From: a virus
Taxonomy: Duplodnaviria > Caudoviricetes
DNA: 64,000 nt
Virus record (IMG/VR): IMGVR_UViG_3300005611_000001
Strand: one strand, 5' to 3'
The position numbers were made by a program, and so were the translations under genes. A model generated the notes under the pieces. It was not told where the DNA came from, ran no database searches, and worked only from the letters and a program-made list of their open reading frames with translations. Every line of letters starts with the position of its first letter. Within the stretch, counting starts at the first letter, position 1. This document shows positions 13,066-53,465 of the stretch, piece after piece.

Positions 13066-13068
13066 ATA
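13061..13068 (+). promoter_or_regulatory. T4-type late promoter for gp8
   Basis: Exact TATAAATA overlapping the gp6 stop codon. Confidence 0.8.
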
Positions 13069-13095
13069 AGATAACTTCAGATAGAGAATTAAACC

Positions 13096-14454: not shown

Positions 14455-17400
14455 ATGGCGACACAATTTACTTCTAGTACGTTATCTGGCATTTATAATG
14501 ACGATTGGTCAGAAGCAGATAACTATCACCAGATTCTATTCAATAATGGAAGAGCGCTTCAAGCACGAGAGTTGACGCAGCTTCAGACCATAATTTTCAA
14601 TGAGCTTGGTCGTCTTGGAAAAAACATTTTCAAAGAAGGTGCGACGCTTTCTGCTGGCGGCATTGCAGTAAACGCAGACTATGAGTATATCAAAGTTTCT
14701 GCGACAAATGCTGGTGGTGCTTTTGCGAGTATTCCTGTAGGTACAGTTTTTAAGAATCCTAATACAAACGTTGAAGCAAGAGTATTAGAAGTCAAGCCTC
14801 GTGATGGCGTCAACTTCATTCTTGATACTCTTTATGTTCAGTATATTAACAGTGGTGCTAGCGCAATTGGTTCGACTCCGACTAGATTTGGAGACGGTGA
14901 TGTTCTGTTTGATCAGTCTGGCGGTGGTTATCAGATTACAACAGAAACACCAAATGCTACAGGAAAAGGCGTAAGATTTACAGTAGGCGAAGGCGACTTC
15001 TTTATCATGGGTCACTTCGTTCACACACAAGAACAATCGCTTATTCTTTCGCCGTACACTGAAATTGCAAATGCAACTGTTGGTTTTAAAGTAATTCAAG
15101 AAGTTGTTACTGTCAACGATAACAGCGCACTTTTCGACAATGCTAGCGGTATTGTAAATACAGCGTCACCTGGCGCTGATCGATATCGCATCAGTCTTGT
15201 ACTCACAACACAAGATCAAATTGCTTCGGACGAAACCTTTGTTTTTATTGCAACGGTTGAAAATTCTAAAGTTACAGAAGAAATTGAAGAGAATGATGCA
15301 TATAACAAGATTGAAGAATTTGTTGCTCTAAGAACAAAAGAAGAATCTGGAAATTATGTAGTCAATCCTTTTGTCATCAACGTTCAAGATGCAGTAGTTG
15401 GTGACTCTAGCCTTGAGCTTGTGGTGTCTCCTGGGCTTGCGTATATCAACGGATATAGAATAAGCAAGTCTTCGTCTACAAAACTTAATATCCCTCGTCC
15501 ACAGCAAACAGAGACCGTTGCCAACGATGTTGTGCCCATTGTCTATGGAAATTATTTCATTTCTGATAGCAATAGAGGTCTTCCAAATCTTGACGCAACA
15601 CAAGTAAACGTGTATAATGCTTTTGGTGCCGGCGGCTCAGCTATAGGAACTGCTAGAATACGCGCAGTTCAAAAAGATGGTGCTAATCATCGTGTGTATG
15701 TGTTCGATATTAGCGTCGATTCTGATCAAAGCTTGCGTGATGCAAAGAGCATTGGTACAGGCGCAACAGACATCTTCAATCTCGTTCGCGAAGCTGACGG
15801 TGCTAAACTTTATGGGGTGACAGACAATGATCTTCTGTTCCCAACTTCACGCCCTCGCCCTGAATCTTTTGCTGATGTCATTCTAACAAAACAAATTCAT
15901 GAAGGTAGCCTTGTCGCTGACGGTAGCGGAATCATTACTCTGCAAACTCTTTCTTCTGGGCAAGCTTATACAGACACAACTCTTTGGGTTGTTGCTTCTG
16001 CTGATTCTTCTGCAAGGGCTCACACTGTAGGCGCACCCACGAACAGTGGGCGTGACGTTCAAATTTCTGGCCTTGTTGCAGGTAAAACTTACGAGGTTCT
16101 CTCGTATGTTCAAAAGACTGCTACAAGAAAGGCAAAGACACTCACCACAGCAACTGCAACTCTTCCGAAGCAAACTGACACTGTTAATAACATCACTTAC
16201 TACGAATTTACAGTGCCTGATATCTTCGAAGTTGATTCTGCGAAAGCGAATAGCTCGTCAGGCATCAACATGCTTCCAAGTCTTCTTCTTGATGACGGTC
16301 AGCGCGATAACTTCTATGCGAAGGGTCGTCTGATTATGAATCCTGCGGACAGCGCGCCGCCTAATCTTTTTGTTAATTATCGTTACTTTGCGCGTGGCGC
16401 TGGTGGCGATTTCTTTGATGCAACTTCTTATGGTAATGTGCCTGTTGCATACAAAGACATTCCTAATCATGTGCAAAAAGACGGTACGATTGTAAATCTG
16501 CGCAATTATCTGGATTTCAGACCTGACGAAACTTCGTTTGGCTCAGCGTCTGCCATTTTCGATCTGCCAAGAAATGGTGATAATATCACTGCAGATGTTA
16601 GCTATTATCTACCTCGTGCTGACAAGCTTCTTCTGACACAAGAAGGTGAATTCCAAATTCTGTTGGGGCAGCAAGCTGGTAATCCTCAGTATAAGCCAAC
16701 ACCTGATAATGCTCTTGAAGTCTACAAAATTCTATTAAATGCAAACACTCTTGATGAGAATGACCTCAAAGTTACGCCTGTTGAGCATAAGCATTACACG
16801 ATGGCAGATATTGCCAAGATTGAAGCCAAGCTTGATGATCTTGAAGAGTATACAACACTCAGTCTGCTTGAGCTTGAGCAGAAGCTGAATGCTGCGCTTG
16901 ACAGTGATGGCATTGAGCGTGTTGAAAGTGGTTCACAAGTCGACGACTTTAGTGATCAGACTGGTGCTGATACAAAGAATCCTGACTATGCGGCTGCAAT
17001 CGATCCGGAAAGTAAACTCATTCGCCCAATGATTGACGAAGACAACATTCGTCTCATCATTGACAATACGCTTTCTTCAAATATTCTTAAGAAAGGCGAC
17101 AATGTTTACATCAACTACGACTCTGCTGAGTGGGCAGTGCAGTCTCTTGCTTCTCGCTCTGTTAAGATCAATCCGTTTGGTCTTGTCGACAACGTTGGTA
17201 CGATCAAGCTTTCGCCGACATCTGACGAATGGAAAGAGTCCGTTCAAGAAGCAGAGAAAGCAGTATCAGGTTCGGGAAGACTAGATCGTAAACAAGCGCT
17301 TCTTTGGAACAACTGGTCTTGGAACTGGTTTGGGCGTAGTCTAGAAAATATTGAGTTTGACTATGCACAAATTCGTTCGCCTAATCCAAGAATTCGTCAA

Positions 17401-39245: not shown

Positions 39246-40001
39246 ATGGCATCACCAGCATCAAGACAAGAACTGATTGATTTTTGCTTGCGCAGACTCG
39301 GAGAGCCTGTCATTGAAATTAATGTCGATACTGATCAGGTAGAAGATAAAGTAGATGATGCAATTCAAAAATATCAAGAGTTTCACAGCGATGCGACCAT
39401 TCGCACCTATCTGAAATATCAAGTGACTGCGGACGATGTTACGAACGGGTATGTTCCTATTTCGTCGAACATTATTTTTATTTCGAAAGTGTTTCCGTTC
39501 TCTTCTACATTTGGTTCCTCTGGTAATCTGTTTGACATTCGTTATCAGATGTTTTTGAATAACATGGGCGACTTCATTAACTTCGCCGGCGATCTTGCGT
39601 ATCTGTATCAGATGGAGCAATATCTGAGCATGATCGATCTTCAGCTTCACGGGCATCCTACTGTGAAGTTTTCACGCCGTCAGAATCGTCTGTATATTTG
39701 GGGCGACTTTGAAGACAAAGACCTGCAAGCTGGTGACTATCTGGTTGCAGAAGTTTTTCAAACAATCGATCCTGAGACGCACACAAGCATCTACAATGAC
39801 ATGTTTATCAAAGACTACACCACCGCTTTAATCAAGCAGCAATGGGGTGCGAATCTTAGCAAGTTTGAAGGAATGCAATTACCTGGTGGTGTAACGATGA
39901 ATGGTCGTCAAATTTTTGAAGATGCGACCGCTGATATTGAACGTCTAGAAGAGAAGCTGAGAACAGAGCAAGAGCTACCTGTCGACTTCTTCGTGGGTTA
40001 A
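39246..40001 (+). CDS. gp13: Neck protein gp13
   Basis: SRQELIDFCLRRLGEPVIEINV...KQQWGANLSKFEGMQLPGGVTMNG. Confidence 0.95.
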   Translation: MASPASRQELIDFCLRRLGEPVIEINVDTDQVEDKVDDAIQKYQEFHSDATIRTYLKYQVTADDVTNGYVPISSNIIFISKVFPFSSTFGSSGNLFDIRYQMFLNNMGDFINFAGDLAYLYQMEQYLSMIDLQLHGHPTVKFSRRQNRLYIWGDFEDKDLQAGDYLVAEVFQTIDPETHTSIYNDMFIKDYTTALIKQQWGANLSKFEGMQLPGGVTMNGRQIFEDATADIERLEEKLRTEQELPVDFFVG

Positions 40002-40002
40002 C

Positions 40003-40893
40003 ATGGCTATAAATCGATATTTCAGTCAAGGAACAGCATCAGAACAGCGACTCTACGAAGATATTATAATTGAGTCACTGAAAATCTATGGGCAAGATGT
40101 TTACTATTTACCTCGTGAAATAGTTAATCGCGATACTATTTTTAGCGATGACTCTACTTCTAGATTCAAAGATGCGTATCGTATTGAAATGTACATTGAA
40201 AACGTCGAAGGTTTTGACGGTGAAGGCGATCTGTTTACCAAGTTTGGTGTAGAAATTCGTGATGCTGCTACATTTATTGTAGCGCGTCGTCGATGGAATT
40301 CTAAAGTTGCTTTTTATGAAAACACTGACACTCAGTCATTTTATCGCCCGCGCGAAGGTGACTTGATCTATCTTACTTTGTCAAGGTCTTTCTTTGAGAT
40401 TACAAAAGTCGAAACAGAAAATCCGTTTTATCAATTGAAAGACTTGCCTGTGTTTCGCATTCGCGCAGAGTTGTTTGAGTACAATGATGAAGATTTTGAT
40501 ACGAGTCTCAATCTTGATACCATCGAATCTAATCATGCTTATCAAACAATTCTCACATTTGATTTAGCACAAATGACAGGCAAATTTGAGATTGGTGATA
40601 CAATTACTCAGACAAATCCAAACGGATTTACAATTACAGGTGATGTTGTTAAGACTGACGCAACCGTTTCAAGCGCGTATAAAGTTTATGTTGCTCACGC
40701 TGGAGCGAGCGATGGCGAGTTTCATAACTTTTCGACATTGTACAGAATTGAAAATGAAAATGGAATTGGTGGTAAGCCGTCAGCAGTAGGCGAAGAAGAT
40801 TTGCAAGACAGTCAACAGAATGCAGACTTCGATACTGAAGCAACAAATATCATTGATTTCAGTGAGCAGAATCCCTTTGGAGATCCAGTCTAA
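40003..40893 (+). CDS. gp14: Neck protein gp14
   Basis: EQRLYEDIIIESLKIYGQDVYYLPRE...GFDGEGDLFTKFG...RPREGDLIY...DFSEQNPFG. Confidence 0.95.
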   Translation: MAINRYFSQGTASEQRLYEDIIIESLKIYGQDVYYLPREIVNRDTIFSDDSTSRFKDAYRIEMYIENVEGFDGEGDLFTKFGVEIRDAATFIVARRRWNSKVAFYENTDTQSFYRPREGDLIYLTLSRSFFEITKVETENPFYQLKDLPVFRIRAELFEYNDEDFDTSLNLDTIESNHAYQTILTFDLAQMTGKFEIGDTITQTNPNGFTITGDVVKTDATVSSAYKVYVAHAGASDGEFHNFSTLYRIENENGIGGKPSAVGEEDLQDSQQNADFDTEATNIIDFSEQNPFGDPV

Positions 40894-42275
40894 TGTTTGG
40901 CACTTATTTTTATCACCAAAGGATTCGCAAAGCAGTAGCGGTGTTTGGCTCTCTGTTTAATAACATTAATGTTGTTCGAACAAACAGCGCTGGTGCTGTA
41001 ATGAGTCAAGTTAAAGTACCTTTGTCTTACGCACCAAAAAGAGATTTTCTAGCTAGAATCGATGCAACACAAGATGGTGAAGAAGCAGAGCGTCAGGTAG
41101 CAATTAAATTGCCAAGAATGTCTTTTGAAATTACGAATATGCAATATGATCCTGCAAGACAATTGCCTAAGATGAATAAGTGTGTGACTTTTCCCACGAA
41201 CTTCGAAGGTGGTGCGCGAGAGCTTTACACACCCGTTCCTTATCTAATTGGCTTTCAGTTGAATGTTTATGCAAAATCACAAGATGATGCATTACAAATT
41301 GTCGAACAGATTTTACCATATTTTACACCACAGTATACGGTGACTGTCAAGCCTTTATCTGATTTTGATACAAAAGAAGATACGCCAATTTCTTTGGTAG
41401 GTATTACTTTTAGTGATGACTATGAAGGGTTGATTGAGGCAAGAAGATCGATCATCTACACACTTGACTTTGAAATGAAACTCAGTCTCTATAAAAACAT
41501 TGCTGCAACAAGTGCGGTTATTACTTCTGCCGATGTTAATATCTACGACTATGACGACACAGATAATTTATACTCTACAGTCGAAGTTCGAACATTTTCG
41601 AAAGCGGGTCTTTCAGGTTCTCTTCTGTTCGAAGACGGTGGCACAATTACCAATTCCAATTTCAAAATAGATAATGTACCAGCAGAAGTTTCTTCGCTTG
41701 AAATATTGACAGCACCGTCAAACGGTACAGCAACAGCAACTTTGACTACGAACACTACAACAGCGCTTGGTAAAATTACGTCAACAGGCACTTGGACGTA
41801 TACGCCAAACGCAGACTGGTATGGATCAGATTCGTTTGTGATCAAAGCTAATTTTGTTGGTGGTGGATCGATCAATTCTACGATTACTGTCTCTGTACAG
41901 AATCCTGAAAAAGATGCGATCAATGATGCATTTACGTTTGATCTTGCTTTCGACAATTATATTGATTTCAACGTAGCATCAAACGATGATTTTGAAACAA
42001 CAGGCGGTGTTACATATTCTATTTCTGCTGGCGGTTACCCATCGAATGGTTCGGTGCAAGTTTTAAATGCGAATACAGGTGCGTTTAGATACACTCCAAA
42101 CGCAGGATTTACAGGAACAGATACTTTTCTTTACAGGGCAACACCAGCAACGGGTCAATCAGAAACGGGAATTGTTACGATAACAGTTAATGATACCGCA
42201 AGTACTATGATTGCAGAATCTGGTGCATTAATTGCAATAGAACAAGACATTGACACTATTATCGCTTACGAATAG
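40893..42275 (+). CDS. gp15: Tail sheath stabilizer/terminator gp15 with two C-terminal Ig-like (Big_9-type) domains
   Basis: MFGTYFYHQRIRKAVAVFGSLFNNI...KVPLSYAPK...LPRMSFE...EQILPYF. Then PSNGT...YTPNADWYGSDSF and PSNGSV...YTPNAGFTGTDTF. Confidence 0.92.
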   Translation: MFGTYFYHQRIRKAVAVFGSLFNNINVVRTNSAGAVMSQVKVPLSYAPKRDFLARIDATQDGEEAERQVAIKLPRMSFEITNMQYDPARQLPKMNKCVTFPTNFEGGARELYTPVPYLIGFQLNVYAKSQDDALQIVEQILPYFTPQYTVTVKPLSDFDTKEDTPISLVGITFSDDYEGLIEARRSIIYTLDFEMKLSLYKNIAATSAVITSADVNIYDYDDTDNLYSTVEVRTFSKAGLSGSLLFEDGGTITNSNFKIDNVPAEVSSLEILTAPSNGTATATLTTNTTTALGKITSTGTWTYTPNADWYGSDSFVIKANFVGGGSINSTITVSVQNPEKDAINDAFTFDLAFDNYIDFNVASNDDFETTGGVTYSISAGGYPSNGSVQVLNANTGAFRYTPNAGFTGTDTFLYRATPATGQSETGIVTITVNDTASTMIAESGALIAIEQDIDTIIAYE

Positions 42276-42283
42276 GAACGATC

Positions 42284-42598
42284 ATGCCAACTATAAAAAT
42301 TTCTCAGTTAGACGAGTTTTCTGGAACACCAGATAGTTCTGATTTGCTTCCACTTGTAGATTTAAGTGAAACGCAAACTAAAAGAATCTCAATACGAGAT
42401 TTAGCCTCTTATATGGACAGCGCAGAAAACGCGACTAATGCAATTGTGGCTTTAAGAGCAGACACAACTGAAAATGCAATTTATGTTTCAGGAGACTCGT
42501 CTGGCATCTGGAGTGGTGATCCACCAGAAACTGTAAATGATGCAATTGATAGACTGGCTGCACTTATTCAATCTTTGAATGGTGGTACTGGCGCATAA
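42284..42598 (+). CDS. Short fibre-family protein (KISQL N-terminal motif)
   Basis: MPTIKISQL...DLLPLVDLSETQTKRISI. Short Ala-X-Y stretch. Confidence 0.6.
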   Translation: MPTIKISQLDEFSGTPDSSDLLPLVDLSETQTKRISIRDLASYMDSAENATNAIVALRADTTENAIYVSGDSSGIWSGDPPETVNDAIDRLAALIQSLNGGTGA

Positions 42599-42602
42599 TC
42601 AG

Positions 42603-42610
42603 TATAAATA
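42603..42610 (+). promoter_or_regulatory. T4-type late promoter
   Basis: Exact TATAAATA 26 nt upstream of the ATG at 42636. Confidence 0.8.
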
Positions 42611-42635
42611 AAGAAAACTCTTTTGAGGAATTACG

Positions 42636-43340
42636 ATGGCTATAGCAGGCGTACCAATATCGACTCTTAGGGAACTTGTCATACCCGCGAGCGATGATTA
42701 TCTAGTCATTAATGACCAAAGCACTTTTACAACAAAAAGAATTACATTCGCTAATCTTTTTGCTGATTATGCTAGCAATCTTAGAGATTCTGCTACGGGT
42801 GCGTTCGTCGATAATTTTACAACTAACAGTCTTAACGTAAAAGGAAATGCGTCAGTTACGGGTGATGCTACGATCTTAGGCACAATCAATTTCGAAAATC
42901 TCTATGATGTTGTTGAAGGTATTACGATAAGTAAGTTTGTTGATGAAGCTGATGGTATTGCAAGTAATGATAATGATACTTCGATCCCAACATCAGCAGC
43001 AATAAAAGCATATGTTGACGGAGCTGTTTCTGACTATCGTGCAAAAGAAAACATCAAGCCATTTGGTGAGGCGTTAAAAAAACTAAATGGTATTAAAGCG
43101 TATGAGTACAACCTGATTGCAGAACCTGGCGTCACCGAAGTTGGTTTCATTGCACACGAACTACAAGAAAGATTGCCTACTTTAGTCAATGGCGAAAAAG
43201 ATGCAGTTTACGAAGGTGGTAAGCCGAAATATCAAACAGTGAATTACGCTAAAATGGTTCCCATTTTGTTCACCGCAATTCGTGAACTAGAAAAGCAAGT
43301 AAGAGACTTAAGAGATCAACTTGCAGAGATTAAAGGATAA
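42636..43340 (+). CDS. Fibre protein with C-terminal intramolecular chaperone (peptidase S74) domain
   Basis: SDYRAKENI...GFIAHELQERLPTLV.GEKD...QTVNYAKMVPILFTAIRELEKQV is the S74 autocleaving chaperone pattern. Confidence 0.85.
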   Translation: MAIAGVPISTLRELVIPASDDYLVINDQSTFTTKRITFANLFADYASNLRDSATGAFVDNFTTNSLNVKGNASVTGDATILGTINFENLYDVVEGITISKFVDEADGIASNDNDTSIPTSAAIKAYVDGAVSDYRAKENIKPFGEALKKLNGIKAYEYNLIAEPGVTEVGFIAHELQERLPTLVNGEKDAVYEGGKPKYQTVNYAKMVPILFTAIRELEKQVRDLRDQLAEIKG

Positions 43341-43343
43341 ATC

Positions 43344-44798
43344 ATGGCTGGAGTAAAAATAACAGACTTAGATCAGCTGATTGGTCAACCTGCGGATGAT
43401 GATGTTCTTATTGTCGTAGACACAAGTGATAATGTCACAAAACAGATTACTGTTGCTGATCTTATTACTGCAACCGAAGATGCTACGACAGCACAGGTCG
43501 CTGATCAATTTAAAGTTGCCACAGAAAGTACGAATGCTTCTTTTTATGTTACCTTCGTAGCTTCTACTTCTGGGCAAGATTCAGCTAAAGTCGATACAGC
43601 TTTAAGTTATAATCCTGCTACGAATATTCTGACTGCTGGTCAGTTCACTGGAAGTGGTGCTGGGCTTACAAACGTAAATGCTGACAGCGCTCTGAATGCG
43701 GCTAATGCTGTCTTAGCGACCACTGCAATTACTGCTTTAAATGCTCTAGCAGCTGACAGTGCGACCACAGCAACTTCTTCTATTACTGCTTTGCGCGCCA
43801 CTTCTGCAGATAGTGCTACTAATGCCACGAACGCAATTGTTGCCCTTCGCGCGACAACTGCTGACAGTGCAGCAAATGCAACAAATGCATTGTTTGCAAC
43901 TACTGCCACTTCTGCTCTGACTGCTGACAGTGCCACTAACGCCACAAATGCCAATAATGCAATTAGAGCATTGACTGCTGCTGGTGCTGATAGTGCTGCG
44001 TTTGCTACTTCTGCTTTGACTGCTCAGACTGCGCAAATTTCTATTTTTTCTGACAGTGCAGGAAATGCAACCAATGCGCTTCATGCTTTAAATGCTGATG
44101 CTGCTTTGATTGCAGATAGTGCATTTAATGCTGCAAATGCTTTGCTCGCAACTCTTGCTATAGAATCTTTGGGCGATTTGGACAACATTAGAGATTCTGC
44201 TAATGGTGTAACAGCGACTGGTGATCTAACCGTTGATAGCGATCTTATCGTTCGCGGTGTTTTGTTCGGTGATGGTTCAGGTCTAACAGGTGTAACAAGT
44301 ACTTCTGTCGCAACTGCTGCAGAAAAAGTCGATGCGAAAGCTGCGGATTCGACCGGTACACACTATCTTATGTTGCGTACAACGCAAACTGGTTATGATA
44401 GTGTTTCAACTAAAGCTAATTTAACTTATGATCCTGTTACTGGTATTTTAGCGTCTGGTGGATTTTCTGGAGACGGGTCGAACATCAGCAACGTTGCTGC
44501 CGTTAGCGCAACAAATGCGTCAAACGTTGTAATTACAACAGTAGCAGACAGTTCGACATATTTCCCTTTGCTTTCAAGCACATCTTCTGGTAATGATAAT
44601 GTTCATGTTAGTGTGAATATGCAAGTCAATCCGTTTAGGGGAAGATTAAAGCTTAATATTTTTGCCACAGATAATTGGGAAATGTTTGAAAGCGCAAACG
44701 AACTATTCTTCTCATATAACGGAGTTAAGAAAGTTAAATTTGATTCGTCTGGCAATGTGTTCATGACAGGAACCCTTACTCAAAGCGCTTCGTTATAA
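43344..44798 (+). CDS. Fibre protein with (Ala-X-Y)n shaft
   Basis: MAGVKITDL N-terminus, GSGAGLT and GDGSGLTGV fibre motifs, and 54 consecutive A-X-Y triplets. Confidence 0.75.
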   Translation: MAGVKITDLDQLIGQPADDDVLIVVDTSDNVTKQITVADLITATEDATTAQVADQFKVATESTNASFYVTFVASTSGQDSAKVDTALSYNPATNILTAGQFTGSGAGLTNVNADSALNAANAVLATTAITALNALAADSATTATSSITALRATSADSATNATNAIVALRATTADSAANATNALFATTATSALTADSATNATNANNAIRALTAAGADSAAFATSALTAQTAQISIFSDSAGNATNALHALNADAALIADSAFNAANALLATLAIESLGDLDNIRDSANGVTATGDLTVDSDLIVRGVLFGDGSGLTGVTSTSVATAAEKVDAKAADSTGTHYLMLRTTQTGYDSVSTKANLTYDPVTGILASGGFSGDGSNISNVAAVSATNASNVVITTVADSSTYFPLLSSTSSGNDNVHVSVNMQVNPFRGRLKLNIFATDNWEMFESANELFFSYNGVKKVKFDSSGNVFMTGTLTQSASL

Positions 44799-44801
44799 AT
44801 A
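44794..44801 (+). promoter_or_regulatory. T4-type late promoter
   Basis: Exact TATAAATA overlapping the upstream stop, 25 nt before the ATG at 44826. Confidence 0.8.
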
Positions 44802-44825
44802 TTGCTAGATTGCTGAGGAAACAAA

Positions 44826-45587
44826 ATGGCAGACATTAGAATTTCAGAGTTGTCCGAACTAATAAACATTGCGGCAGACGATGTTCTTGTCGTCAATGAT
44901 GTTTCGGCTGCGACGACGAAAAAAATCACTCGTGCAAACTTCTTAGTCGGTGTAACACAAAACGTTACGGACTCTGGCGATAATGCTGTTGTTGCTCAAG
45001 ATTTAACAGTAAACAATGATCTTTTCGTCGGTGGAAATATTGACACCACTGGTGATGTCAAGTTTGGTTCTTTAACAGATGCTGTTTCCGGTCTGACCGT
45101 AAATCGTATAATCAAAGATACCGATGGTTTGCAGAATCACGATAGCAACGGCGCTCTTCCTACTACTGGCTCTGTGATTGAATACTTAAATTATTACAAC
45201 ACTGACATTAATGTGCGCAATTCTTTTTCAGTGACTACGGCTTCACTTGCAAATAGTGATTCTGCAGAAGCGCTGATTGCTGGATACAAAGGCTACGCTC
45301 TGTACAAAATTCAAACAGACAAAGCTGCTTGGGTAAGAGTTTATACGGACTCGGCTTCAAGAACGGCTGATGAAGGAAGAGCTAAAGGAGTTACACCAGC
45401 AGACCACATAGGTCTTGTCTCTGAAGTTGTGACTTCTGGTGCGCAAACAATTAATCTTGCTCCAGCACCCGTTGGCTTTAATAATTCTTCACCTGTGAAA
45501 AGTTCGATCCCGCTTAAGATCGTGAATCTCAGCGGCTCTACGGACACTGTTCAAGTTACTCTTACGGCTATGAAGCTTGAAGGGTAA
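44826..45587 (+). CDS. Fibre-family protein (RISEL N-terminal motif)
   Basis: MADIRISEL...DDVLVVNDVSAATTKKIT. C-terminal YALYKIQTDKAAWVRVYTD...SRTAD domain. Confidence 0.65.
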   Translation: MADIRISELSELINIAADDVLVVNDVSAATTKKITRANFLVGVTQNVTDSGDNAVVAQDLTVNNDLFVGGNIDTTGDVKFGSLTDAVSGLTVNRIIKDTDGLQNHDSNGALPTTGSVIEYLNYYNTDINVRNSFSVTTASLANSDSAEALIAGYKGYALYKIQTDKAAWVRVYTDSASRTADEGRAKGVTPADHIGLVSEVVTSGAQTINLAPAPVGFNNSSPVKSSIPLKIVNLSGSTDTVQVTLTAMKLEG

Positions 45588-45604
45588 AAAACAAGAAGAT
45601 TGTA

Positions 45605-48600
45605 ATGCATAAAGGCTTTCTCGACAAAAGAAGAAGATTCCTTAATCTGCGAGAAATGCAGATCGAAAATGTTTTGCCTGAACATTTTACACAGTCATAT
45701 CCAAAATTTATCAATCTTCTTTCTCGCTACTATGAGTGGCAAGATCAAAACAATCCTAATGAATTATTAAATCATCTTTTTGCGACTCGTGATATTAATG
45801 AAACTGATATCACGCTTCTCTCGTTTATTGAAGATGAGTTTCTTTTAGGCGAAGCATACTTCGAAGGCTTTGGTGACACCGAAGCAGAGAAAAGGGCTGC
45901 TGCAAATTTTTCAAATCAGATGTTTCGTTCAAAAGGCACAAAATTCGCAATCGAATGGTTTTTCAGATCATTCTATGGGCTAGACGCAGAAGTTCGTTAC
46001 ACAAAAGAAAATGTATTTACGCTCAACACACAGTCTTCTCAGATAGGACCAGATTCGCTACGCTATCTTACCAATGACGAACTATATCAGACATTTGCGC
46101 TTCTTGTTCGCGTAGGTGTTCCTATTGCAAAGTGGAGAGATATCTTTAAACTCTTTGCACATCCTGCGGGAATGTATCTCGGTGCTGAAGTTTCTATAAA
46201 TGATGCTGTGACTTCTGCCGTAAATTCTTTGATGCTTGATTCTGCAGTTGAACAAAGAGCCAACGAATCATATACAATTCTTGCAACGCCTGACAGCACA
46301 AACGAAGGCGCTATAATTAATTTTAAAGTTAACGGAACAAACATTCCTAACAATACTGGTTATATTTACTATCATGTTCTTGATCTCACTACAAGCGATT
46401 CAGATTTTGTGGGAACTGTTCCTCGATTAGACAGTTTGCAGTATCTTCCCATAAACGATAGTGCTGGTCAAGCGGTTGGAAGATTTACGATTACCACCAA
46501 GCTTGATAGTGTTGAAGGTGAAGGTGTTCATTCGTTTAATGTTATTTTGCGTGACGATGATTTGAGACCTCGAGGTGTTGAAAGAGTCAACTTAAACGAT
46601 GTTATTTCTTCGTATGTTATGACTCCTACGGCAACTACTATCGCTGAAGGTTCGCCTGTTACTTTTAATGTTGTGGGAACAAATGTCCCAAGCGGCGGTA
46701 GCACAACATTATATTATTATGTACAACACGTTACTACAAGTGATTCTGATTTTAAAGTTGCACCTCCAAGTGCTGCTGCGCCTGCTTCATTTTTTATTCG
46801 AGGAAGTACAGGGTCGTTTTCTATAACGCCTCAAATTGATAATGATCTTGTTGACAGTGACGAACAGTTTAAAGTAATTATTCAGACACTTGACGCTATC
46901 AAAAAAGATTCAGCAACAATTACAGTTTCACAGACCATTCCTCCCTTTGCTGTAAATGCAATTGATTCTGCGATTGAAGGCACGAGTATTGTTGCACCTC
47001 TTACAATTTCAGAACAAGATTTTGGCGACACTTTAACGTGGGCAATTACAGGCGCTGCAGCATCCGATAGTCGACTAGCTTTCAATACTTCAGGCACAAT
47101 TGTAGCGACTTCTGCAAGTCAAAATCTAGTAATACCTTTGGGCACTACTAAAGAATACACAGGTCCAGTTTCGGGAACCCTTACGGTCACAAATTCGAAC
47201 TATACTCCTACACCGTTAAGTACGAACAATACTTTCACGATTTTTGATTCTGCACCTACATATTCTATTCTTATGAATCCTGCAGTTGCTGGAGAAGGCG
47301 ACACCGTAACATTTAAACTAGCTGGCAGAAACATTCAAGACAGCACTTTTTATTTTTATATCGACAATGTAACAACTAACGATTTAGATTTTCTTGGTGG
47401 GCGACCAAAAAACACTAGCAGAGAAGCAGTCTCAGTTGTTAACGACTCTGGTACCACCAATTCAATCACTTTTGCTGACAGTGGTGAAGTTGTAGATCAA
47501 AATTTCATTGCTTACATGTATAATACAGTATCTGGTGGATCGGTGCTTGCGTCGAAGCAATTTACGATTGCGGGCATTACTTATACACTTACACCAAATA
47601 CGAGTTCTGTTAACGAAGGCGGTACAGTAACGTTTACGTTTATTGGTCCGGACGGAACTTATTATTACTGGCTTGAAGGGCAGCGGCTACCAGGACAGAC
47701 TCAGCTTTTCTCACAAGGCGATTTTACTAGTGGTTTTGCAAATATAAACAGTCGTTTGGCATTTAACGTAACCGGAGGCAGTGGATCTTTTTCAGTAACA
47801 CTCGCAAATGATATTCGATCAGAAGGTACAGAAGCTTTCATTGCAAGCGTGTCAACAAGCCCAACAAGCGGAGCTATAGCTGTTTCGCCACAGATTACAA
47901 TTAATGATACTTCTAAGCAAGAATATACGATGACGATTCAAAACATTCTTGAAGGTGACGATTTGCTTGTTAATGTAGCATCAAATGCAGGACCTTCAGA
48001 GCCTTTGTTTTATGAAATTTCTGGGGCGGCCGCGGCTAAATTCAGTTCAACACAAATTTATAGATTATACACTGGGGCTCAGACTTCTTTTAATGTAAAT
48101 CTTGGAACTTCGACAACAAACTCAGCTTTTGATGGTGTGTTATCTGGTACTGTAACACTGTCGCGTGGCGGTTATGTTGGAAGCGGCGGTACACTAATCG
48201 ACACCGCGAACTTTACTTTAAGCGATCTTGCTGCTACGTTTACGCTTGCTGCAAGCACAACTACACCAAACGAAGGCGGAACTATTACTTGGACTGTAGG
48301 CGGCTCAAGTATTGAAGACGGCACTTACTATTATAGAGTATCTGATGTTAAAAGAGCATCAGTATCTTCGGCTGTTTCATCCGGAACTTCTGTTATTAAT
48401 CTTGCAAGCACAGCTGGAATTACAGTTGGCATGGCATGCGATAACGCTTCAATATCTGGGACAGTCACAGGTGTTTGGGATACTCAAGTTACAATGAGTT
48501 CACCAGTCACATCTACGATAGGCGCAGGAACAATTTTGAATTTTGCAAATCAATCGGTGTTTGATGATTTTACAAGTGGCTATGCAGGATCAGTCAGTGT

Positions 48601-49687
48601 GACATCGAATGCAGGTGCTTTCAACACTGTCACTGCAATTAACGCAGACACTAAGAACGATGCGTATACGATGGGATTATACACCACATCAACTGGTGCT
48701 TCTCCTGTAGCGTCTGTAGGATTTACGACAACAGATGCAACTCCAGCTTCGATAGTTAATATTCTTATCGATGCTGGTAAAGACTTTGTTTACGATATTA
48801 ATCCTGATCCACCTGCGTATGATGCGGGCGTGGCAAGATCGATTATCAGATTTGAAAACGATGGTAAAGTATATGCTATTGGCAGCGAGAATCCAGGAGG
48901 AGGTGACCGCAGCAGTGGCGAGTTGATTGGCACTTGGGTGTCTAGTGGGCCCGTTGGTAACTTTAACATATCAGCACAGGTCGTTTCAGGACCTACACCA
49001 AAAGGCACGTTTATTGGTTCTACAGGAACGCAATTGTCTCTGTCGACGAACAGAGGCTGGTATCTTGAAGTGCCAGCGCCGACATCTGGTAGCAATGAAG
49101 GAACGTTAAGAGTTGACATTACAATTACAGACGTAGAAGATCCTTCGAACACAGACACACAACGCTTTGAGCTATATGCCGTTGCGAATGCTTTGCCTGT
49201 AACAGCACCTGTTGATCCGCCTCCTCCAGGCTCAAGTAGTCAGCTTGACGAAGACTGTTTTACAGAAAATTCTTTTGTCACGTTAACTGATGGAACTAGA
49301 AAAGAAATTCGATTAATTGAAGTTGGTGATAAAGTACTTGGTGCAGACAAGTCGATCAATGAAGTTACGCGCAATCATTCTATCGAAAAAACTTCTGCTC
49401 TGTATGGATGGGGCAGCACAGTACCGTTTGTGACTGGCGCTCATCCATTCTTAACAACACAAGGTTGGAAATGTTTTAATTTAGAAGCAGGGCGTAAACT
49501 ACATCCTGAGCTTGACCTGACAGAAATACAAGAAAACGATAAATTAATTGTTTGGAATGGAACAGAATATACGACTTCGACAGTTCAAAATATTGCCATT
49601 GAAATCAAAAACGTTAAAATCAATAGCTTGAGTGTGACGGGTAATGACACTTACATTGCGAATGGATTTGTTGTTCACAACAAATAA
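45605..49687 (+). CDS. gp7: Baseplate wedge gp7-like core fused to Calx-beta-like repeats and a C-terminal Hint domain
   Basis: IENVLPEHF...FINLLSRYY...FRSKGT...FFRSFYG...HPAGM (gp7 core). Seven ..EG..(V/I)xF repeats. CFTENS...TGAHPF...NGFVVHNK at the C-terminus. Confidence 0.75.
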   Translation: MHKGFLDKRRRFLNLREMQIENVLPEHFTQSYPKFINLLSRYYEWQDQNNPNELLNHLFATRDINETDITLLSFIEDEFLLGEAYFEGFGDTEAEKRAAANFSNQMFRSKGTKFAIEWFFRSFYGLDAEVRYTKENVFTLNTQSSQIGPDSLRYLTNDELYQTFALLVRVGVPIAKWRDIFKLFAHPAGMYLGAEVSINDAVTSAVNSLMLDSAVEQRANESYTILATPDSTNEGAIINFKVNGTNIPNNTGYIYYHVLDLTTSDSDFVGTVPRLDSLQYLPINDSAGQAVGRFTITTKLDSVEGEGVHSFNVILRDDDLRPRGVERVNLNDVISSYVMTPTATTIAEGSPVTFNVVGTNVPSGGSTTLYYYVQHVTTSDSDFKVAPPSAAAPASFFIRGSTGSFSITPQIDNDLVDSDEQFKVIIQTLDAIKKDSATITVSQTIPPFAVNAIDSAIEGTSIVAPLTISEQDFGDTLTWAITGAAASDSRLAFNTSGTIVATSASQNLVIPLGTTKEYTGPVSGTLTVTNSNYTPTPLSTNNTFTIFDSAPTYSILMNPAVAGEGDTVTFKLAGRNIQDSTFYFYIDNVTTNDLDFLGGRPKNTSREAVSVVNDSGTTNSITFADSGEVVDQNFIAYMYNTVSGGSVLASKQFTIAGITYTLTPNTSSVNEGGTVTFTFIGPDGTYYYWLEGQRLPGQTQLFSQGDFTSGFANINSRLAFNVTGGSGSFSVTLANDIRSEGTEAFIASVSTSPTSGAIAVSPQITINDTSKQEYTMTIQNILEGDDLLVNVASNAGPSEPLFYEISGAAAAKFSSTQIYRLYTGAQTSFNVNLGTSTTNSAFDGVLSGTVTLSRGGYVGSGGTLIDTANFTLSDLAATFTLAASTTTPNEGGTITWTVGGSSIEDGTYYYRVSDVKRASVSSAVSSGTSVINLASTAGITVGMACDNASISGTVTGVWDTQVTMSSPVTSTIGAGTILNFANQSVFDDFTSGYAGSVSVTSNAGAFNTVTAINADTKNDAYTMGLYTTSTGASPVASVGFTTTDATPASIVNILIDAGKDFVYDINPDPPAYDAGVARSIIRFENDGKVYAIGSENPGGGDRSSGELIGTWVSSGPVGNFNISAQVVSGPTPKGTFIGSTGTQLSLSTNRGWYLEVPAPTSGSNEGTLRVDITITDVEDPSNTDTQRFELYAVANALPVTAPVDPPPPGSSSQLDEDCFTENSFVTLTDGTRKEIRLIEVGDKVLGADKSINEVTRNHSIEKTSALYGWGSTVPFVTGAHPFLTTQGWKCFNLEAGRKLHPELDLTEIQENDKLIVWNGTEYTTSTVQNIAIEIKNVKINSLSVTGNDTYIANGFVVHNK
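49256..49684 (+). other. Hint (intein-like) autoprocessing domain
   Basis: Block A CFTENSFVTLTDG, block B TGAH (TxxH) and terminal HN followed only by Lys and stop. No endonuclease. Confidence 0.85.
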
Positions 49688-49694
49688 CGGTTAG

Positions 49695-49702
49695 TATAAA
49701 TA
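49695..49702 (+). promoter_or_regulatory. T4-type late promoter for the terminase genes
   Basis: Exact TATAAATA 5 nt upstream of the gp16 ATG. Confidence 0.75.
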
Positions 49703-49707
49703 ACAGT

Positions 49708-50064
49708 ATGAAAGATGATGATCCGAATATCAAGTCAGACTACGATTATTCCCGCGCAACCTATTACGAACTAATAGACAAGGGAAGAGAGTCACTTGAT
49801 CTGATGATTGAAGTCGCTCGCGAATCAGAACATCCTCGCGCGTTCGAAGTTCTTTCGAACATGATCAAAAACATCTCTGATGTTAATGATAAGCTTATGG
49901 AGCTTAACAAAAAGACGCGAGAAGTTACTCAACACGAAAAGAAACAAGACCAAAAGGCAATCACCAATAACAATGTGTTTATTGGCAGCACTACTGACTT
50001 GCAAAGATTATTAATGAAACATGATGATGAAAAGGTGATTGATGTTAGCCCTGCGGATGAATGA
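49708..50064 (+). CDS. gp16: Terminase small subunit gp16
   Basis: DYDYSRATYYELI...ARESEHPRAFEV...TNNNVFIGSTTDLQRLL. Confidence 0.92.
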   Translation: MKDDDPNIKSDYDYSRATYYELIDKGRESLDLMIEVARESEHPRAFEVLSNMIKNISDVNDKLMELNKKTREVTQHEKKQDQKAITNNNVFIGSTTDLQRLLMKHDDEKVIDVSPADE

Positions 50065-51658
50065 TCAAAGACACTACTTAGGCAATATCAATGTAAAAGC
50101 GGACGGTGTTCAACAGCAATGGACTGAACACGAAGTTCGTGAGTATGCGAAGTGTATGCGTGATCCTGCATATTTTGCAAGAAATTATGTAAAGATTATA
50201 TCACTTGACAATGGTCTTGTCAATTTCAACTTGTATCCTTACCAAGAAAAGATGTTCGATCACTTCAACGGTAATCGATTCTCTATTGTTCTTGCTTGTC
50301 GTCAGTCTGGTAAATCTATCTCTTCTGTTGTCTATCTGCTTTGGTATGCAATCTTTCACCCCGAAAAAACTATCGCCGTGTTAGCAAACAAAGGTGCTAC
50401 TGCGAGGGAGATGCTTGCTCGTGTTACATTGGCTCTGGAAAACTTACCCTTCTTTTTGCAACCAGGTTGTAGGGCTCTTAACAAAGGTAGTATTGAGTTT
50501 TCAAATAATTCTCGGATTATTGCTGCTGCTACTTCTGGCAGTTCTATTCGTGGTATGTCTGTTAACTTACTATTTCTTGATGAGTTTGCTTTTGTTGAGC
50601 GAGCAAATGAGTTTTATACTTCGACGTATCCCGTTATATCGGCGGGTAGAGACACCAAAGTTATTATCACATCTACGGCGAACGGAATAGGTAATACTTT
50701 TCACAAGATTTGGGAAGGTGCGGTTCAGAAGACAAACGAATACAAAGCGTTTACAGTCAACTGGTGGGACGTACCTGGAAGAGACGAAGAGTGGAAGCGT
50801 CAAACAATCGCGAACACTTCACAAATGCAGTTTGACCAAGAGTTTGGTAACACCTTCTTTGGGACAGGCGATACTCTGATCAATGCAGAAACTCTGCTTG
50901 GTCTGAGAGCAAAACCACCTAAGAAAATTCTTGAAGGGGGTGATGTAAAAATCTACGAAGAGACCAAAGAGAAGCACGAATATCTCATGATGGTCGACGT
51001 AGCGAAAGGAAGAGGACAGGACTATTCGACATTTAATGTCATCGATATATCTGAGCGACCTTTTAAACAGGTAGCAGTGTATCGGAATAACCGTATCTCT
51101 CCAATACTCTTCCCTGATATTATCTATAAGTTTGCGAAAGTCTACAATAATGCATATGTGATCATTGAGTCAAACGATCAAGGTTCCGTAGTGTGTAATG
51201 GATTGTATTACGACCTTGAATATGAGAATGTTCACGTTGAGTCTGCTGTCAAAGCAAACGCAATTGGTATTGAAATGAATCGTAAAGTCAAGCGGCTTGG
51301 TTGCTCAGGTATTAAAGACTTACTTGAAGAACAGAAACTTGATATATGTGACGAGGAAACTATTCTAGAAGTCTCTACTTTCGTCTCGAAAGGGCAATCA
51401 TACGAAGCAAGTGATGGCAACCATGACGATCTGATGATGAATCTTGTCATGCTTGGTTATTTTGTCGCCACTCAAATGTTTGCAGATATGACAGACATCA
51501 ATCTAAAACAAATGATGTTTGAAAACCAAATGAGAGAAATTGAAGACGCAATCGTGCCTTTTGGTTTTGTTGATGACGGAAGCGATGCGATAAAAGAAAT
51601 TGAAGAGCAGGATAAAATGAAATACGATCCATGGCAAATATGGGAAGATGTGTACTGA
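50057..51658 (+). CDS. gp17: Terminase large subunit gp17
   Basis: RQSGKS Walker A, LFLDEFAFV Walker B, DVAKGRGQDYS and HDDLMM nuclease motifs. Start re-placed at MNDQ (50057). Confidence 0.97.
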   Translation: MNDQRHYLGNINVKADGVQQQWTEHEVREYAKCMRDPAYFARNYVKIISLDNGLVNFNLYPYQEKMFDHFNGNRFSIVLACRQSGKSISSVVYLLWYAIFHPEKTIAVLANKGATAREMLARVTLALENLPFFLQPGCRALNKGSIEFSNNSRIIAAATSGSSIRGMSVNLLFLDEFAFVERANEFYTSTYPVISAGRDTKVIITSTANGIGNTFHKIWEGAVQKTNEYKAFTVNWWDVPGRDEEWKRQTIANTSQMQFDQEFGNTFFGTGDTLINAETLLGLRAKPPKKILEGGDVKIYEETKEKHEYLMMVDVAKGRGQDYSTFNVIDISERPFKQVAVYRNNRISPILFPDIIYKFAKVYNNAYVIIESNDQGSVVCNGLYYDLEYENVHVESAVKANAIGIEMNRKVKRLGCSGIKDLLEEQKLDICDEETILEVSTFVSKGQSYEASDGNHDDLMMNLVMLGYFVATQMFADMTDINLKQMMFENQMREIEDAIVPFGFVDDGSDAIKEIEEQDKMKYDPWQIWEDVY

Positions 51659-51670
51659 AAACATACATTT

Positions 51671-51678
51671 TATAAATA
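51671..51678 (+). promoter_or_regulatory. T4-type late promoter for gp18
   Basis: Exact TATAAATA in the gp17-gp18 intergenic region. Confidence 0.8.
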
Positions 51679-51740
51679 AATAATGTGAATCTTCCGTATT
51701 ATGTTCTCTTATCATATGTTAACGAAAAAAGGACACGACC

Positions 51741-53465
51741 ATGGCATTAATACCATCTGAGTCTCCCAACATTATCGTAAAGGAATTCGACCTGTCAGGT
51801 GTTGTGCCGGCAGTGACAACCACTACGGGCGCGTTGGTAGGAGACTTCAATTGGGGTCCTGTTGAACAGCCTATTCGTATAGGTAACGAAGCAGAGCTTG
51901 TTTCAACTTTTGGATCTCCTTCTACAGATTCTGCAGCAGATGTCTCTGACTTTCTGTCTGCGGCTATGTTCCTCAAATATTCTGGCAGTTCTTTTGTCAC
52001 TCGCGTAATCGGCGATTCTGACACCAATGCGTGTGCTGCTGGTTCTGCACCTGTTGTCAGGAATCTTGATAACTGGAACGCTCAGACTCTGACGGCTAAC
52101 AAGATTGTTGCTAAGTATCCTGGCACACTAGGAAACAGCATCAAGGTTTCTATCTGCCCGCAGTCTACAAGCGACAGCGCGTTTGAAAACTGGACTGTCG
52201 ACGGTGTGAATATGTTTGCACTCTTTGATGGTGCACCATCAACATCTTCTTATGTGTCTGCGCTTAGCTCTGCTACAGCATACGACGAAGTTCACGCAGT
52301 TGTTTACGACGAAGACGGTAAAATCACAGGTACTCCTGGCACGATTCTTGAAACGTTCCCTTACCTGTCTCTCGCAACTGACGCGAAAAAATCAGATGGT
52401 TCTACAAACTATATTTTGGATGTTCTGAACAACCAATCTGATTATGTTTGGGGAGCTAGTCTCGCGACTGAGTTTACGGGCATTACTGGAGCTGCTTCTT
52501 TTAGTGGGCCTGGTTCTACAAATGTTCAAAACTACTCGCTGGGCGGTGGTGTTCATGTTGCACTAGATGTTGGCGATTATCAAACTGGTTTTGATCTGTA
52601 CAATGATCCCGATAACATTCAGGTAGATTTCTTGATTGCTCCTGGTTTGCAAGCAGACGCTGATCAAACAACGATAATTAACTATCTTGCTACAATCGCT
52701 AGCACTCAGAGAAAAGACTGCGTGGTGGTAGCATCGCCTTCTCGTAACATTGTCGTGAATCAGACAAATACTAATACACTTGTGACAAACACGAAGACAT
52801 GGTCTAGCACAATAAATTCTTCTTCATATGTTATTCTAGACAATAATTACATTAAAGTCTATGATAAGTATAGAGACCAATATGTGTTTATCCCTGCTGC
52901 TCCCGCAACTGCTGGTATTATGGCTGCTTCTGACAACAGTAGCGCACCATGGTTCTCGCCTGCAGGTCAGCGTCGTGGGCAATACTTCGGTGTAACTTCG
53001 CTTGCGTACAATGCTTCTAAGTCTCAAAGAGACACGCTGTACAAAGCGGGGGTCAACCCGATTGTGAATCTGCCTGGTCAGGGTATTCTGCTATTTGGTG
53101 ATAAGACTAAACTTGGTCGCCCATCTGCATTTGATCGCATCAACGTTCGTCGCCTGTTCTTGGTGATGGAACGCGCAATCAAAGCAGCTGCACAGAATGT
53201 TATGTTCGAATTTAATGATGAATTCACAAGAGCAGAGTTCGTTAACATTGTCGAGCCTTTCTTGAGAGAGATTAAGGGTCGACGCGGTATCACTGATTTC
53301 CGTGTGGTGTGTGATGAAACAAACAACACACCGAATATCATTGATAACAACCAATTTGTCGCTTCGGTCTTCGTGAAGCCTGCACGTTCTATCAACTACG
53401 TTACTTTGAACTTCGTAGCGGTTAGAACTGGCGTAGACTTCGATGAAGTCGTCGGGATTGTTTAA
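51741..53465 (+). CDS. gp18: Tail sheath protein gp18
   Basis: SPNIIVKEFDLS...WFSPAGQRRG...LYKAGVNPI...FDRINVRRLF...KPARSINYVTLNFVAVRTGVDF. Confidence 0.97.
   Translation: MALIPSESPNIIVKEFDLSGVVPAVTTTTGALVGDFNWGPVEQPIRIGNEAELVSTFGSPSTDSAADVSDFLSAAMFLKYSGSSFVTRVIGDSDTNACAAGSAPVVRNLDNWNAQTLTANKIVAKYPGTLGNSIKVSICPQSTSDSAFENWTVDGVNMFALFDGAPSTSSYVSALSSATAYDEVHAVVYDEDGKITGTPGTILETFPYLSLATDAKKSDGSTNYILDVLNNQSDYVWGASLATEFTGITGAASFSGPGSTNVQNYSLGGGVHVALDVGDYQTGFDLYNDPDNIQVDFLIAPGLQADADQTTIINYLATIASTQRKDCVVVASPSRNIVVNQTNTNTLVTNTKTWSSTINSSSYVILDNNYIKVYDKYRDQYVFIPAAPATAGIMAASDNSSAPWFSPAGQRRGQYFGVTSLAYNASKSQRDTLYKAGVNPIVNLPGQGILLFGDKTKLGRPSAFDRINVRRLFLVMERAIKAAAQNVMFEFNDEFTRAEFVNIVEPFLREIKGRRGITDFRVVCDETNNTPNIIDNNQFVASVFVKPARSINYVTLNFVAVRTGVDFDEVVGIV

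Follow-up and report, generated by a model that had tools for sequence, protein, structure and literature searches.

The window analysed here is a 64,000-nt stretch of the genome of an uncultured marine T4-like phage (Caudoviricetes; IMG/VR record IMGVR_UViG_3300005611_000001). Its plus strand carries, at 45605-49687, an open reading frame (ORF) that is open throughout and encodes a protein of 1360 amino acids (aa) with an N-terminal baseplate wedge-type domain and a C-terminal Hint domain. Judged by its features this Hint is a type A bacterial intein-like (BIL) domain and not an intein, a Hedgehog-type Hog domain or a pretoxin Hint, and its activity is predicted: it probably forms a thioester at the Asp1217-Cys1218 junction and sheds itself after translation. 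The domain had already been noticed in an earlier reading of the DNA letters (the original prediction). Three points go beyond that reading, namely that the Hint is optional in its protein family, that it belongs to the BIL branch, and that the terminal lysine is no leftover but characterises the whole family. The parts concerned are:

49205..49255, plus strand: flexible linker rich in Pro, Ser and acidic residues, aa 1201-1217, ending in Asp1217 (the -1 residue); predicted local distance difference test (pLDDT) 55-63
49256..49681, plus strand: Hint domain (type A BIL-like), aa 1218-1359 (142 aa), identified by fold, profile and conserved residues; key residues Cys1218 (block A), Thr1277 and His1280 (block B), and His1358-Asn1359 (block G)
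49682..49687, plus strand: Lys1360 (the +1 residue) and the stop codon; His-Asn-Lys-stop (HNK-stop) is found in 8 of 8 Hint-bearing orthologues

The Hint is modelled by AlphaFold2 (AF2) with a pLDDT of about 95. When the model was ranked with VIA-align against 48,161 PDB representatives, it matched 28 Hint structures with Z scores from 18.7 to 10. The best match is Tetrahymena BIL2 (Z 18.7, root mean square deviation 2.4, 140 residues), about 2 units above the next, which are the gp41-1 intein (16.5), the Clostridium thermocellum BIL (16.2), the Npu DnaB intein (16.1) and the Hedgehog Hh-C domain (15.4). Foldseek agrees, with 43 Hint matches at E<1e-3 and an E-value of 5e-9 for BIL2. A search of the PDB with the single Hint sequence gave E>0.2 only, and a profile of 120 Hint sequences was needed, which found BIL2 at 9e-18, the C. 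thermocellum BIL at 5e-15, the best true intein at 6e-12, and others more weakly. In addition, the TIGR01443 model (intein_Cterm) scores above its cut-off on the Hint. In the 120-Hint alignment, whose members share 28-65% identity, Cys1218, His1280, His1358 and Asn1359 are invariant, and Thr1277 and Lys1360 are conserved in at least 90%. The predicted terminal Hint, starting at Cys1218 and ending in HN-K-stop, is thus real given its model quality, its fold matches and TIGR01443, and because every residue needed is conserved, thioester formation and Asn cyclisation fit as its chemistry. The expectation that splicing would achieve little also holds, since Lys at +1 precludes the canonical reaction.

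The domain is placed in the type A BIL-like class because it ends in His-Asn, has no Cys, Ser or Thr at +1, and has a profile that is nearer to BILs than to inteins. Type A BILs form an N-terminal thioester, cleave at their C-terminus by Asn cyclisation, end in His-Asn without a +1 nucleophile, and yield mainly cleavage products (PMC4031507, PMC7664689, PMC7765530), but can splice weakly by aminolysis (PMC4031507). The C. thermocellum BIL (PDB 2LWY) is the system of Amitai et al. 2003 and Dassa et al. 2004, here as presented in PMC4031507 and PMC7664689. With type A BILs such as this one the window Hint shares the fold, Cys1, the Thr-x-x-His of block B, the His-Asn end, the lack of Cys/Ser/Thr at +1 and of a homing endonuclease, and a location in the variable part of a non-conserved surface protein. 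It is unlike them in being carried by a phage, in its position at the extreme C-terminus with one residue after Asn, in the Lys or Arg found at +1 in about 90% of copies, and in the head-to-tail arrays of two to seven copies that its relatives often form. BIL2 stems from the BUBL1 polyubiquitin-like locus of T. thermophila (PDB 6TMM, 6Y75) and has been reported to ligate its N-terminal flank to lysine amines (PMC8616854). It is the top match by profile and structure and likewise has no +1 nucleophile. However, its identity to the window Hint is only about 22-24%, and it lies between two ubiquitin-like domains, the upstream of which it reportedly attaches to lysines. The window Hint is instead preceded by a baseplate arm whose tail is not conserved, and it has no C-flank.

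Class 1 mini-inteins (gp41-1, Npu and Ssp DnaB, Mtu RecA) resemble the window Hint in their fold, in blocks A, B, F and G, in TIGR01443, and in Z scores of 15-16.5. However, they require Cys, Ser or Thr at +1 and a C-extein, while here Lys is followed by the stop codon. Without a +1 nucleophile and a C-extein canonical splicing is impossible. In addition, the window Hint is optional and does not occupy a conserved site of an essential enzyme. A canonical intein insertion is also contradicted by the orthologues without a Hint, which stop where the Hint starts instead of continuing, and a truncated intein is ruled out because no orthologue has a C-extein. Read-through into the downstream gp16 gene, which encodes the small terminase subunit (TerS), cannot produce a fusion because gp16 is in a different reading frame. 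Like the window Hint, Hedgehog Hh-C (PDB 1AT0) is a C-terminal Hint that activates the C-terminus upstream of it as a thioester. Hh-C, however, does not end in His-Asn, and for the recruitment of cholesterol it depends on a sterol-recognition region that follows its Hint. A Hog domain is therefore ruled out for the window protein, which ends one residue past the Hint and has no such region. A pretoxin Hint (PT-HINT) is ruled out as well because no toxin domain follows. The PF07591 model has no match at E<=1 on the 1360-aa protein and matches some relatives weakly.

In metagenomes the 1360-aa protein has about 200 homologues, the best 120 of which were used for the orthologue counts. The Hint is present in 8 of the 120 (the window protein, P0002, P0003, P0030, P0061, P0087, P0099 and P0115), each ending in HNK-stop, and absent from about 110. 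Several of the Hint-bearing orthologues were seen on multiple contigs and in multiple samples. The Hint-less orthologues terminate 3-40 residues past the end domain that precedes the linker, which is thus their last domain, and in the related contig L002 the Hint-less gene passes straight into gp16. In some Hint-less orthologues (P0006, P0007, P0016, P0032) the C-terminus consists of a linker rich in Pro or Gly and, after it, ...(L/F/Q)IER or LKER; this ending could be a small conserved tag or what is left of a lost module. In a tree of the N-terminal 450 aa the Hint bearers fall into four separate groups nested among Hint-less proteins, and well-supported branches force at least four gains or losses. 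A quick unconstrained tree of the Hints themselves scatters the eight Hints of the wedge proteins and has the Hint of P0125, an unrelated protein of 218 aa, among the closest relatives of the window Hint. Monophyly of the eight is not rejected by an approximately unbiased (AU) test (p 0.59), so that independent acquisition of the Hints, which we had initially expected, finds no support in the Hint tree. One old gain followed by several losses is possible, and we claim no direction. The guanine-cytosine (GC) content of the Hint segment and its GC content at third codon positions (GC3) equal those of the rest of the gene and give no sign of a recent foreign origin. No further Hints were found in the window.

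An exhaustive HMMER search with aa 1195-1360 against 1.84 billion representative proteins found Hint-type matches in 1,628 proteins at E<=1e-3 and in 551 at E<=1e-10. Copies, +1 residues and arrays were counted in the best 149 of the 1,628. Among the 221 complete C-terminal motifs in this set, the +1 residue is Lys in 186 (84%), Arg in 12 (three of them terminal), Cys in 3 and Ser in 2; about 90% of the complete copies thus have a basic residue there. The substitution of Arg for Lys suggests an electrostatic role of the +1 residue, which it would fit better than a nucleophilic one. Forty copies form the end of their protein as HN-x-stop, and 72 proteins contain two to seven Hints, in many cases arranged head to tail and separated by 0-5 linker residues (HNK directly followed by CF). 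Array proteins include P0121, P0122, P0124, P0131 and P0233, and some arrays are located in the middle of proteins of 3,300-4,100 aa with laminin-G/ConA-like ends. We know of no description or explanation of head-to-tail Hint arrays. Among the partner domains in the family are DUF4815, laminin-G/ConA-like, laminin B and TSP1. In BFVD, phage "Hint domain containing proteins" are found with collagen and FN3, and the ESM Atlas neighbours of the Hint are mostly Uroviricota.

Several family members are orthologues of the 1796-aa DUF4815 protein of the window (14455-19845). In P0147, P0157 and P0215 one to three Hints occupy a single inter-domain site. The Hints there end in HN-R right before a conserved DP(L/V)(A/S)Q, which continues ...SF in P0147 and aligns with NPMAQTF at aa 1280 of the window protein, where the site (aa ~1186-1280) is contiguous and free of Hints. 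P0131, P0141 and P0154 are related DUF4815-type proteins; across the orthologues one to five tandem Hints are found at the one inter-domain site. These orthologues are a natural test of whether the Hints rejoin their flanks or only separate them. Because Hints are found at this site as well as at C-termini, this Hint type behaves as a movable cassette at the domain borders and C-termini of virion proteins.

The anatomy of the 1360-aa protein, the conserved catalytic residues and fold of its Hint, the optional distribution and the family relations are direct observations, from which we infer cleavage, its route and any benefit to the phage. In the protein, a conserved N-terminal core for assembly would be followed by a stalk made of seven Calx-beta-like sandwiches and by a terminal sandwich domain, to which the Hint would be appended through the flexible linker. 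After folding, Cys1218 would attack the carbonyl of Asp1217 in an N-S acyl shift aided by Thr1277 and His1280, giving the thioester. With Lys at +1 and no C-extein a branched ester would not be formed, so that the thioester would be resolved mainly via hydrolysis or thiolysis and the 16-kDa Hint would be shed. In parallel, Asn1359 would cyclise and clip off Lys1360. The mature protein would then end near residue 1217, like the Hint-less orthologues, and the module would be dispensable for the baseplate, perhaps serving as a temporary C-terminal cap in folding or assembly. The original prediction had proposed a self-removing maturation module. Conserved catalytic residues and orthologues that stop where the Hint begins speak for such a module, and cleavage itself is predicted from the sequences. 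Further support comes from the flexible, unconserved junction (linkers and -1 residues vary among the Hint-bearing orthologues), the optional distribution, the Arg that replaces Lys at +1 in some copies, and the literature on type A BILs. By analogy, the neighbouring fibre gene at 42636-43340 with its Peptidase_S74 domain may be a local precedent for self-cleavage. The Peptidase_S74 of phage tail fibres and endosialidases is, like the proposed module, a C-terminal fibre module that removes itself after assembly, but this likeness is a functional analogy only: its fold and chemistry are unrelated (a Ser-Lys dyad protease), and it is required for the folding of trimers, while most orthologues of the 1360-aa protein have no Hint.

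Several observations weigh against self-removal of a BIL-like Hint. No single Pfam Hint model reaches its gathering threshold on the 1360-aa protein. His-Asn-Lys is kept in 8 of 8 terminal orthologues from three diverged subclades although it would be expected to decay if only the N-terminal cleavage mattered; the Lys or the reaction at the C-terminus may therefore be of importance. Moreover BIL2, the closest relative with a solved structure, is reported to ligate its flank and not just to cut it off. Finally, the benefit of the Hint to the phage is left unexplained; the module may be helpful, for example as a transient cap in folding or assembly, or essentially selfish.

The strongest competitor, although an unlikely one, is a ligation driven by the thioester, in which the arm C-terminus would be passed to an amine, either a lysine of another virion protein, which would cross-link the baseplate covalently, or an amine of the host envelope, much as BIL2 acts on ubiquitin-like domains. 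BIL2 is ranked first by profile and by structure and is reported to form isopeptide bonds between lysine epsilon-amines and a C-terminus on several substrates without ATP (PMC8616854), all catalytic residues of the window Hint are conserved, and the domain is located at the far tip of a long arm. However, about 90% of the orthologues have no Hint, so that no essential cross-link can depend on it, no acceptor-recognition region is found on either side of the Hint, and positions -1 to -4 are variable (DED, ENQ, GGG, EFA, PFG) unlike the fixed tail of ubiquitin. Moreover, the same Hint type occurs in head-to-tail arrays, in which there is no obvious ligation product. The original prediction had suggested that the arm tip might be ligated to a small molecule or to the host surface. 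Ligation as such is a legitimate alternative given BIL2, but nothing indicates those particular acceptors: no region for adduct recognition comes after the Hint, and the positions preceding Cys1 are unconserved. The broader idea that the phage Hints are a distinct and abundant BIL clade, marked by a conserved basic residue after the terminal Asn, and use their thioester for ATP-free ligation on the virion is in our view similarly improbable. Here it would join each arm C-terminus through an amide or isopeptide bond to a lysine, be it the +1 residue itself, one of another virion protein, or one of the host surface.

It is more doubtful still that the Hint performs a one-residue splicing reaction. 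Here, the +1 Lys would attack the thioester with its alpha-amine after Asn cyclisation, which is the type A BIL route, or with its epsilon-amine. The mature end would be ...Asp1217-Lys, and the Hint would leave like a scar-poor intein-like parasite, an outcome to which we give the same low credence. This would account for the Lys, which is present in 84% of the 221 complete copies and in every terminal copy of the wedge family, and for His-Asn being invariant even in terminal Hints, and type A BILs are able to splice by aminolysis from the freed amine of the C-flank (PMC4031507). Rejoining of the flanks is also favoured in the DUF4815 orthologues, which carry Hints inside a protein that is contiguous in the phage of the window. 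However, Asn cyclisation at the protein end would free a single lysine that is liable to diffuse away, Arg is a poor nucleophile but present at +1 in 12 copies, and cleavage predominates in the tested type A BILs.

Alternatively, the Hint would escape processing and remain attached to the virion, forming a terminal knob that is a stalled precursor or has a structural or adhesive function. This would suit compact beta domains like those of the rest of the arm and an amide-thioester equilibrium that favours the amide, but is improbable because an invariant Cys1, block B His and His-Asn in more than 100 diverged copies are hard to explain without catalysis and the tethering linker is flexible and disordered.

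Upstream of the linker the protein is divided as follows:

45605..49687, plus strand: whole gene, 1360 aa, preceded by gp15 (40893-42275) and four small fibre-like ORFs and followed by gp16 TerS (49708-50064)
45605..46249, plus strand: conserved N-terminal wedge-type domain, aa 1-215 (PF23786 over aa 104-190, from Pfam), the probable gp7-equivalent core
46265..48616, plus strand: seven tandem beta-sandwich repeats of about 106-128 aa each (internal BLASTP, AF2, Foldseek): R1 aa 221-334, R2 335-444, R3 445-550, R4 551-657, R5 658-769, R6 770-876, R7 877-1004
48617..49204, plus strand: end ("tip") domain, aa 1005-1200, with an ordered beta sandwich at about aa 1050-1196 (AF2 pLDDT about 90)

The seven repeat motifs named in the original prediction are located at aa 231, 345, 455, 561, 668, 780 and 887, and LSLSTNRGW (1144), PVDPPPPG (1202), the Cys of CFTENS (1218) and the end VVHNK-stop are in place as well. 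Repeats R1, R2, R4, R5 and R7 are similar to each other with internal BLASTP E-values of 1e-6 to 4e-10, which makes chance an insufficient explanation, while R3 and R6 represent a weaker subtype. R1-R2 were modelled by AF2 as beta sandwiches with a pLDDT >90. Their top Foldseek matches are the Calx-beta tandems of NCX1/CALX CBD12 (E 4e-9 to 8e-9), with integrin, transglutaminase and Ig tandems reaching nearly equal scores, and the Calx-beta model PF03160 of Pfam has no match at E<=1 on the 1360-aa protein. Thus, the predicted repeats are real, and "Calx-beta-like" is a fair name for them only as a description of the modelled fold. The end domain has generic PapD/pilin-like structural matches only (VIA-align Z 6-7).

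The N-terminal region had been called a gp7 core of about 200 aa, a claim that is partly supported. The Pfam family PF23786 (Baseplate_wedge) matches with E 2e-11 and 44.1 bits against a gathering cut-off of 27 and is present in all of the 120 listed homologues, and aa 1-215 are the most conserved part of the protein with 54 invariant columns among 117 homologues. In the Kyanoviridae cyanophage C48C1 a 316-aa PF23786 protein is encoded directly after gp6, which is the gp7 slot, and shows 32% identity to aa 14-195 of the 1360-aa protein. In the window, gp6 (11278-13065) is directly followed by a 451-aa phrog_438 wedge protein (together 11278-14451), which is gp8-like by synteny with the contig L009, and the usual gp7 slot is empty. 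The only PF23786 gene in the window is 45605-49687, 31 kb downstream of the gp6 region, and no further PF23786 core and no other gp7 candidate adjoining gp6 were found there. However, T4 gp7 itself does not contain PF23786 or any other Pfam domain common to the 1360-aa protein, the Pfam models Gp7_helical, Gp7_5th and Gp7_6th have no match on the latter, and hhalign aligned T4 gp7 to the family profile over 31 columns only (a W..F.HP.G motif) with 8% probability. The gene is also not adjacent to gp6 but lies between gp15 and gp16. Neither the profile of aa 1-450 nor the 451-aa wedge neighbour had a useful match in the PDB. The AF2 monomer model of aa 1-215 is poor (pLDDT 35-65), which would be expected if the core folded only inside the wedge and which prevents a fold-level comparison with gp7 or TssG. 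Family membership and synteny, not structure, therefore provide partial support for the product of 45605-49687 as a putative relocated gp7-equivalent wedge/arm protein. The C48C1 gene (6977-7927 of our contig L003; OQ984149.1 125349-126299) is annotated as "head closure Hc2" although it encodes a PF23786 baseplate wedge protein in the gp7 slot, and this annotation and the label of phrog_3465 look wrong.

The window has a GC content of about 40% and comprises the late structural module of an uncultured T4-like myovirus. The order of the genes is gp48, gp53, a split gp5 with amidase, gp25, gp6, the phrog_438 wedge gene, the 1796-aa DUF4815 protein, a 3914-aa giant protein, fibre genes, gp13, gp14, gp15, the four small fibre-like ORFs, the 1360-aa gene, gp16, gp17, gp18, gp19 and gp20. 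Two related contigs, L001 and L002 (112 and 132 kb), likewise have the wedge gene between gp15 and gp16. A megablast of positions 40000-52000 against INPHARED found no close relatives among deposited phage genomes, and the sole tblastn match of the 1360-aa protein there is the 316-aa C48C1 gene. The four consecutive ORFs at 42284-45587 (104, 234, 484 and 253 aa) have a common N-terminal module of about 45 aa with the motif (I/V)x(I/V)(S/T)xL...TK(R/K/Q)I(S/T) and unrelated C-termini; the start of the 218-aa Hint protein P0125 loosely resembles this module. The fibre-like 234-aa protein among them (42636-43340) has a C-terminal Peptidase_S74 intramolecular chaperone domain (E 4e-12) and thus represents a second type of self-cleaving C-terminal module in the same gene cluster, unrelated to the Hint. 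Gp5 is apparently split into an N-terminal part (5512-6381) and a C-terminal part (8282-9745), between which a 634-aa protein with a C-terminal amidase domain is encoded (6381-8285). The tail sheath stabiliser gp15 (window 40893-42275; L001 2961-4259; L002 1700-2986) has 430-460 aa and a C-terminal Ig extension of the Cadherin_5/Big_9 type, which T4 gp15 (272 aa) does not have.

The natural roles of Hint/BIL self-processing modules outside inteins and Hedgehog proteins are poorly understood. A literature search for Hint/BIL domains in phage virion proteins found no such work and returned only terminase inteins and unrelated papers, and databases merely auto-label some family members as "Hint domain containing". 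BIL domains as such are known. A phage-borne clade with a conserved basic +1 residue, a terminal place on a baseplate protein and tandem arrays was not found in the searchable literature. The baseplate protein described here is a natural experiment because the same protein occurs with and without the terminal Hint in the same genomic slot. Its Hint is a member of a large clade, carried mostly by phages, that comprises 1,628 representative clusters and has an unexplained conserved His-Asn-Lys end. If these Hints only cleave, they would represent a new class of optional modules in the genes of virion proteins, serving maturation or being selfish. Should they ligate, phage assembly or adsorption would gain a covalent chemistry, and the Hints might be a source of compact, nucleophile-free ligation tools. 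Ligation on the virion would then make intein-like chemistry a general tool of marine phages for covalent assembly or irreversible adsorption.

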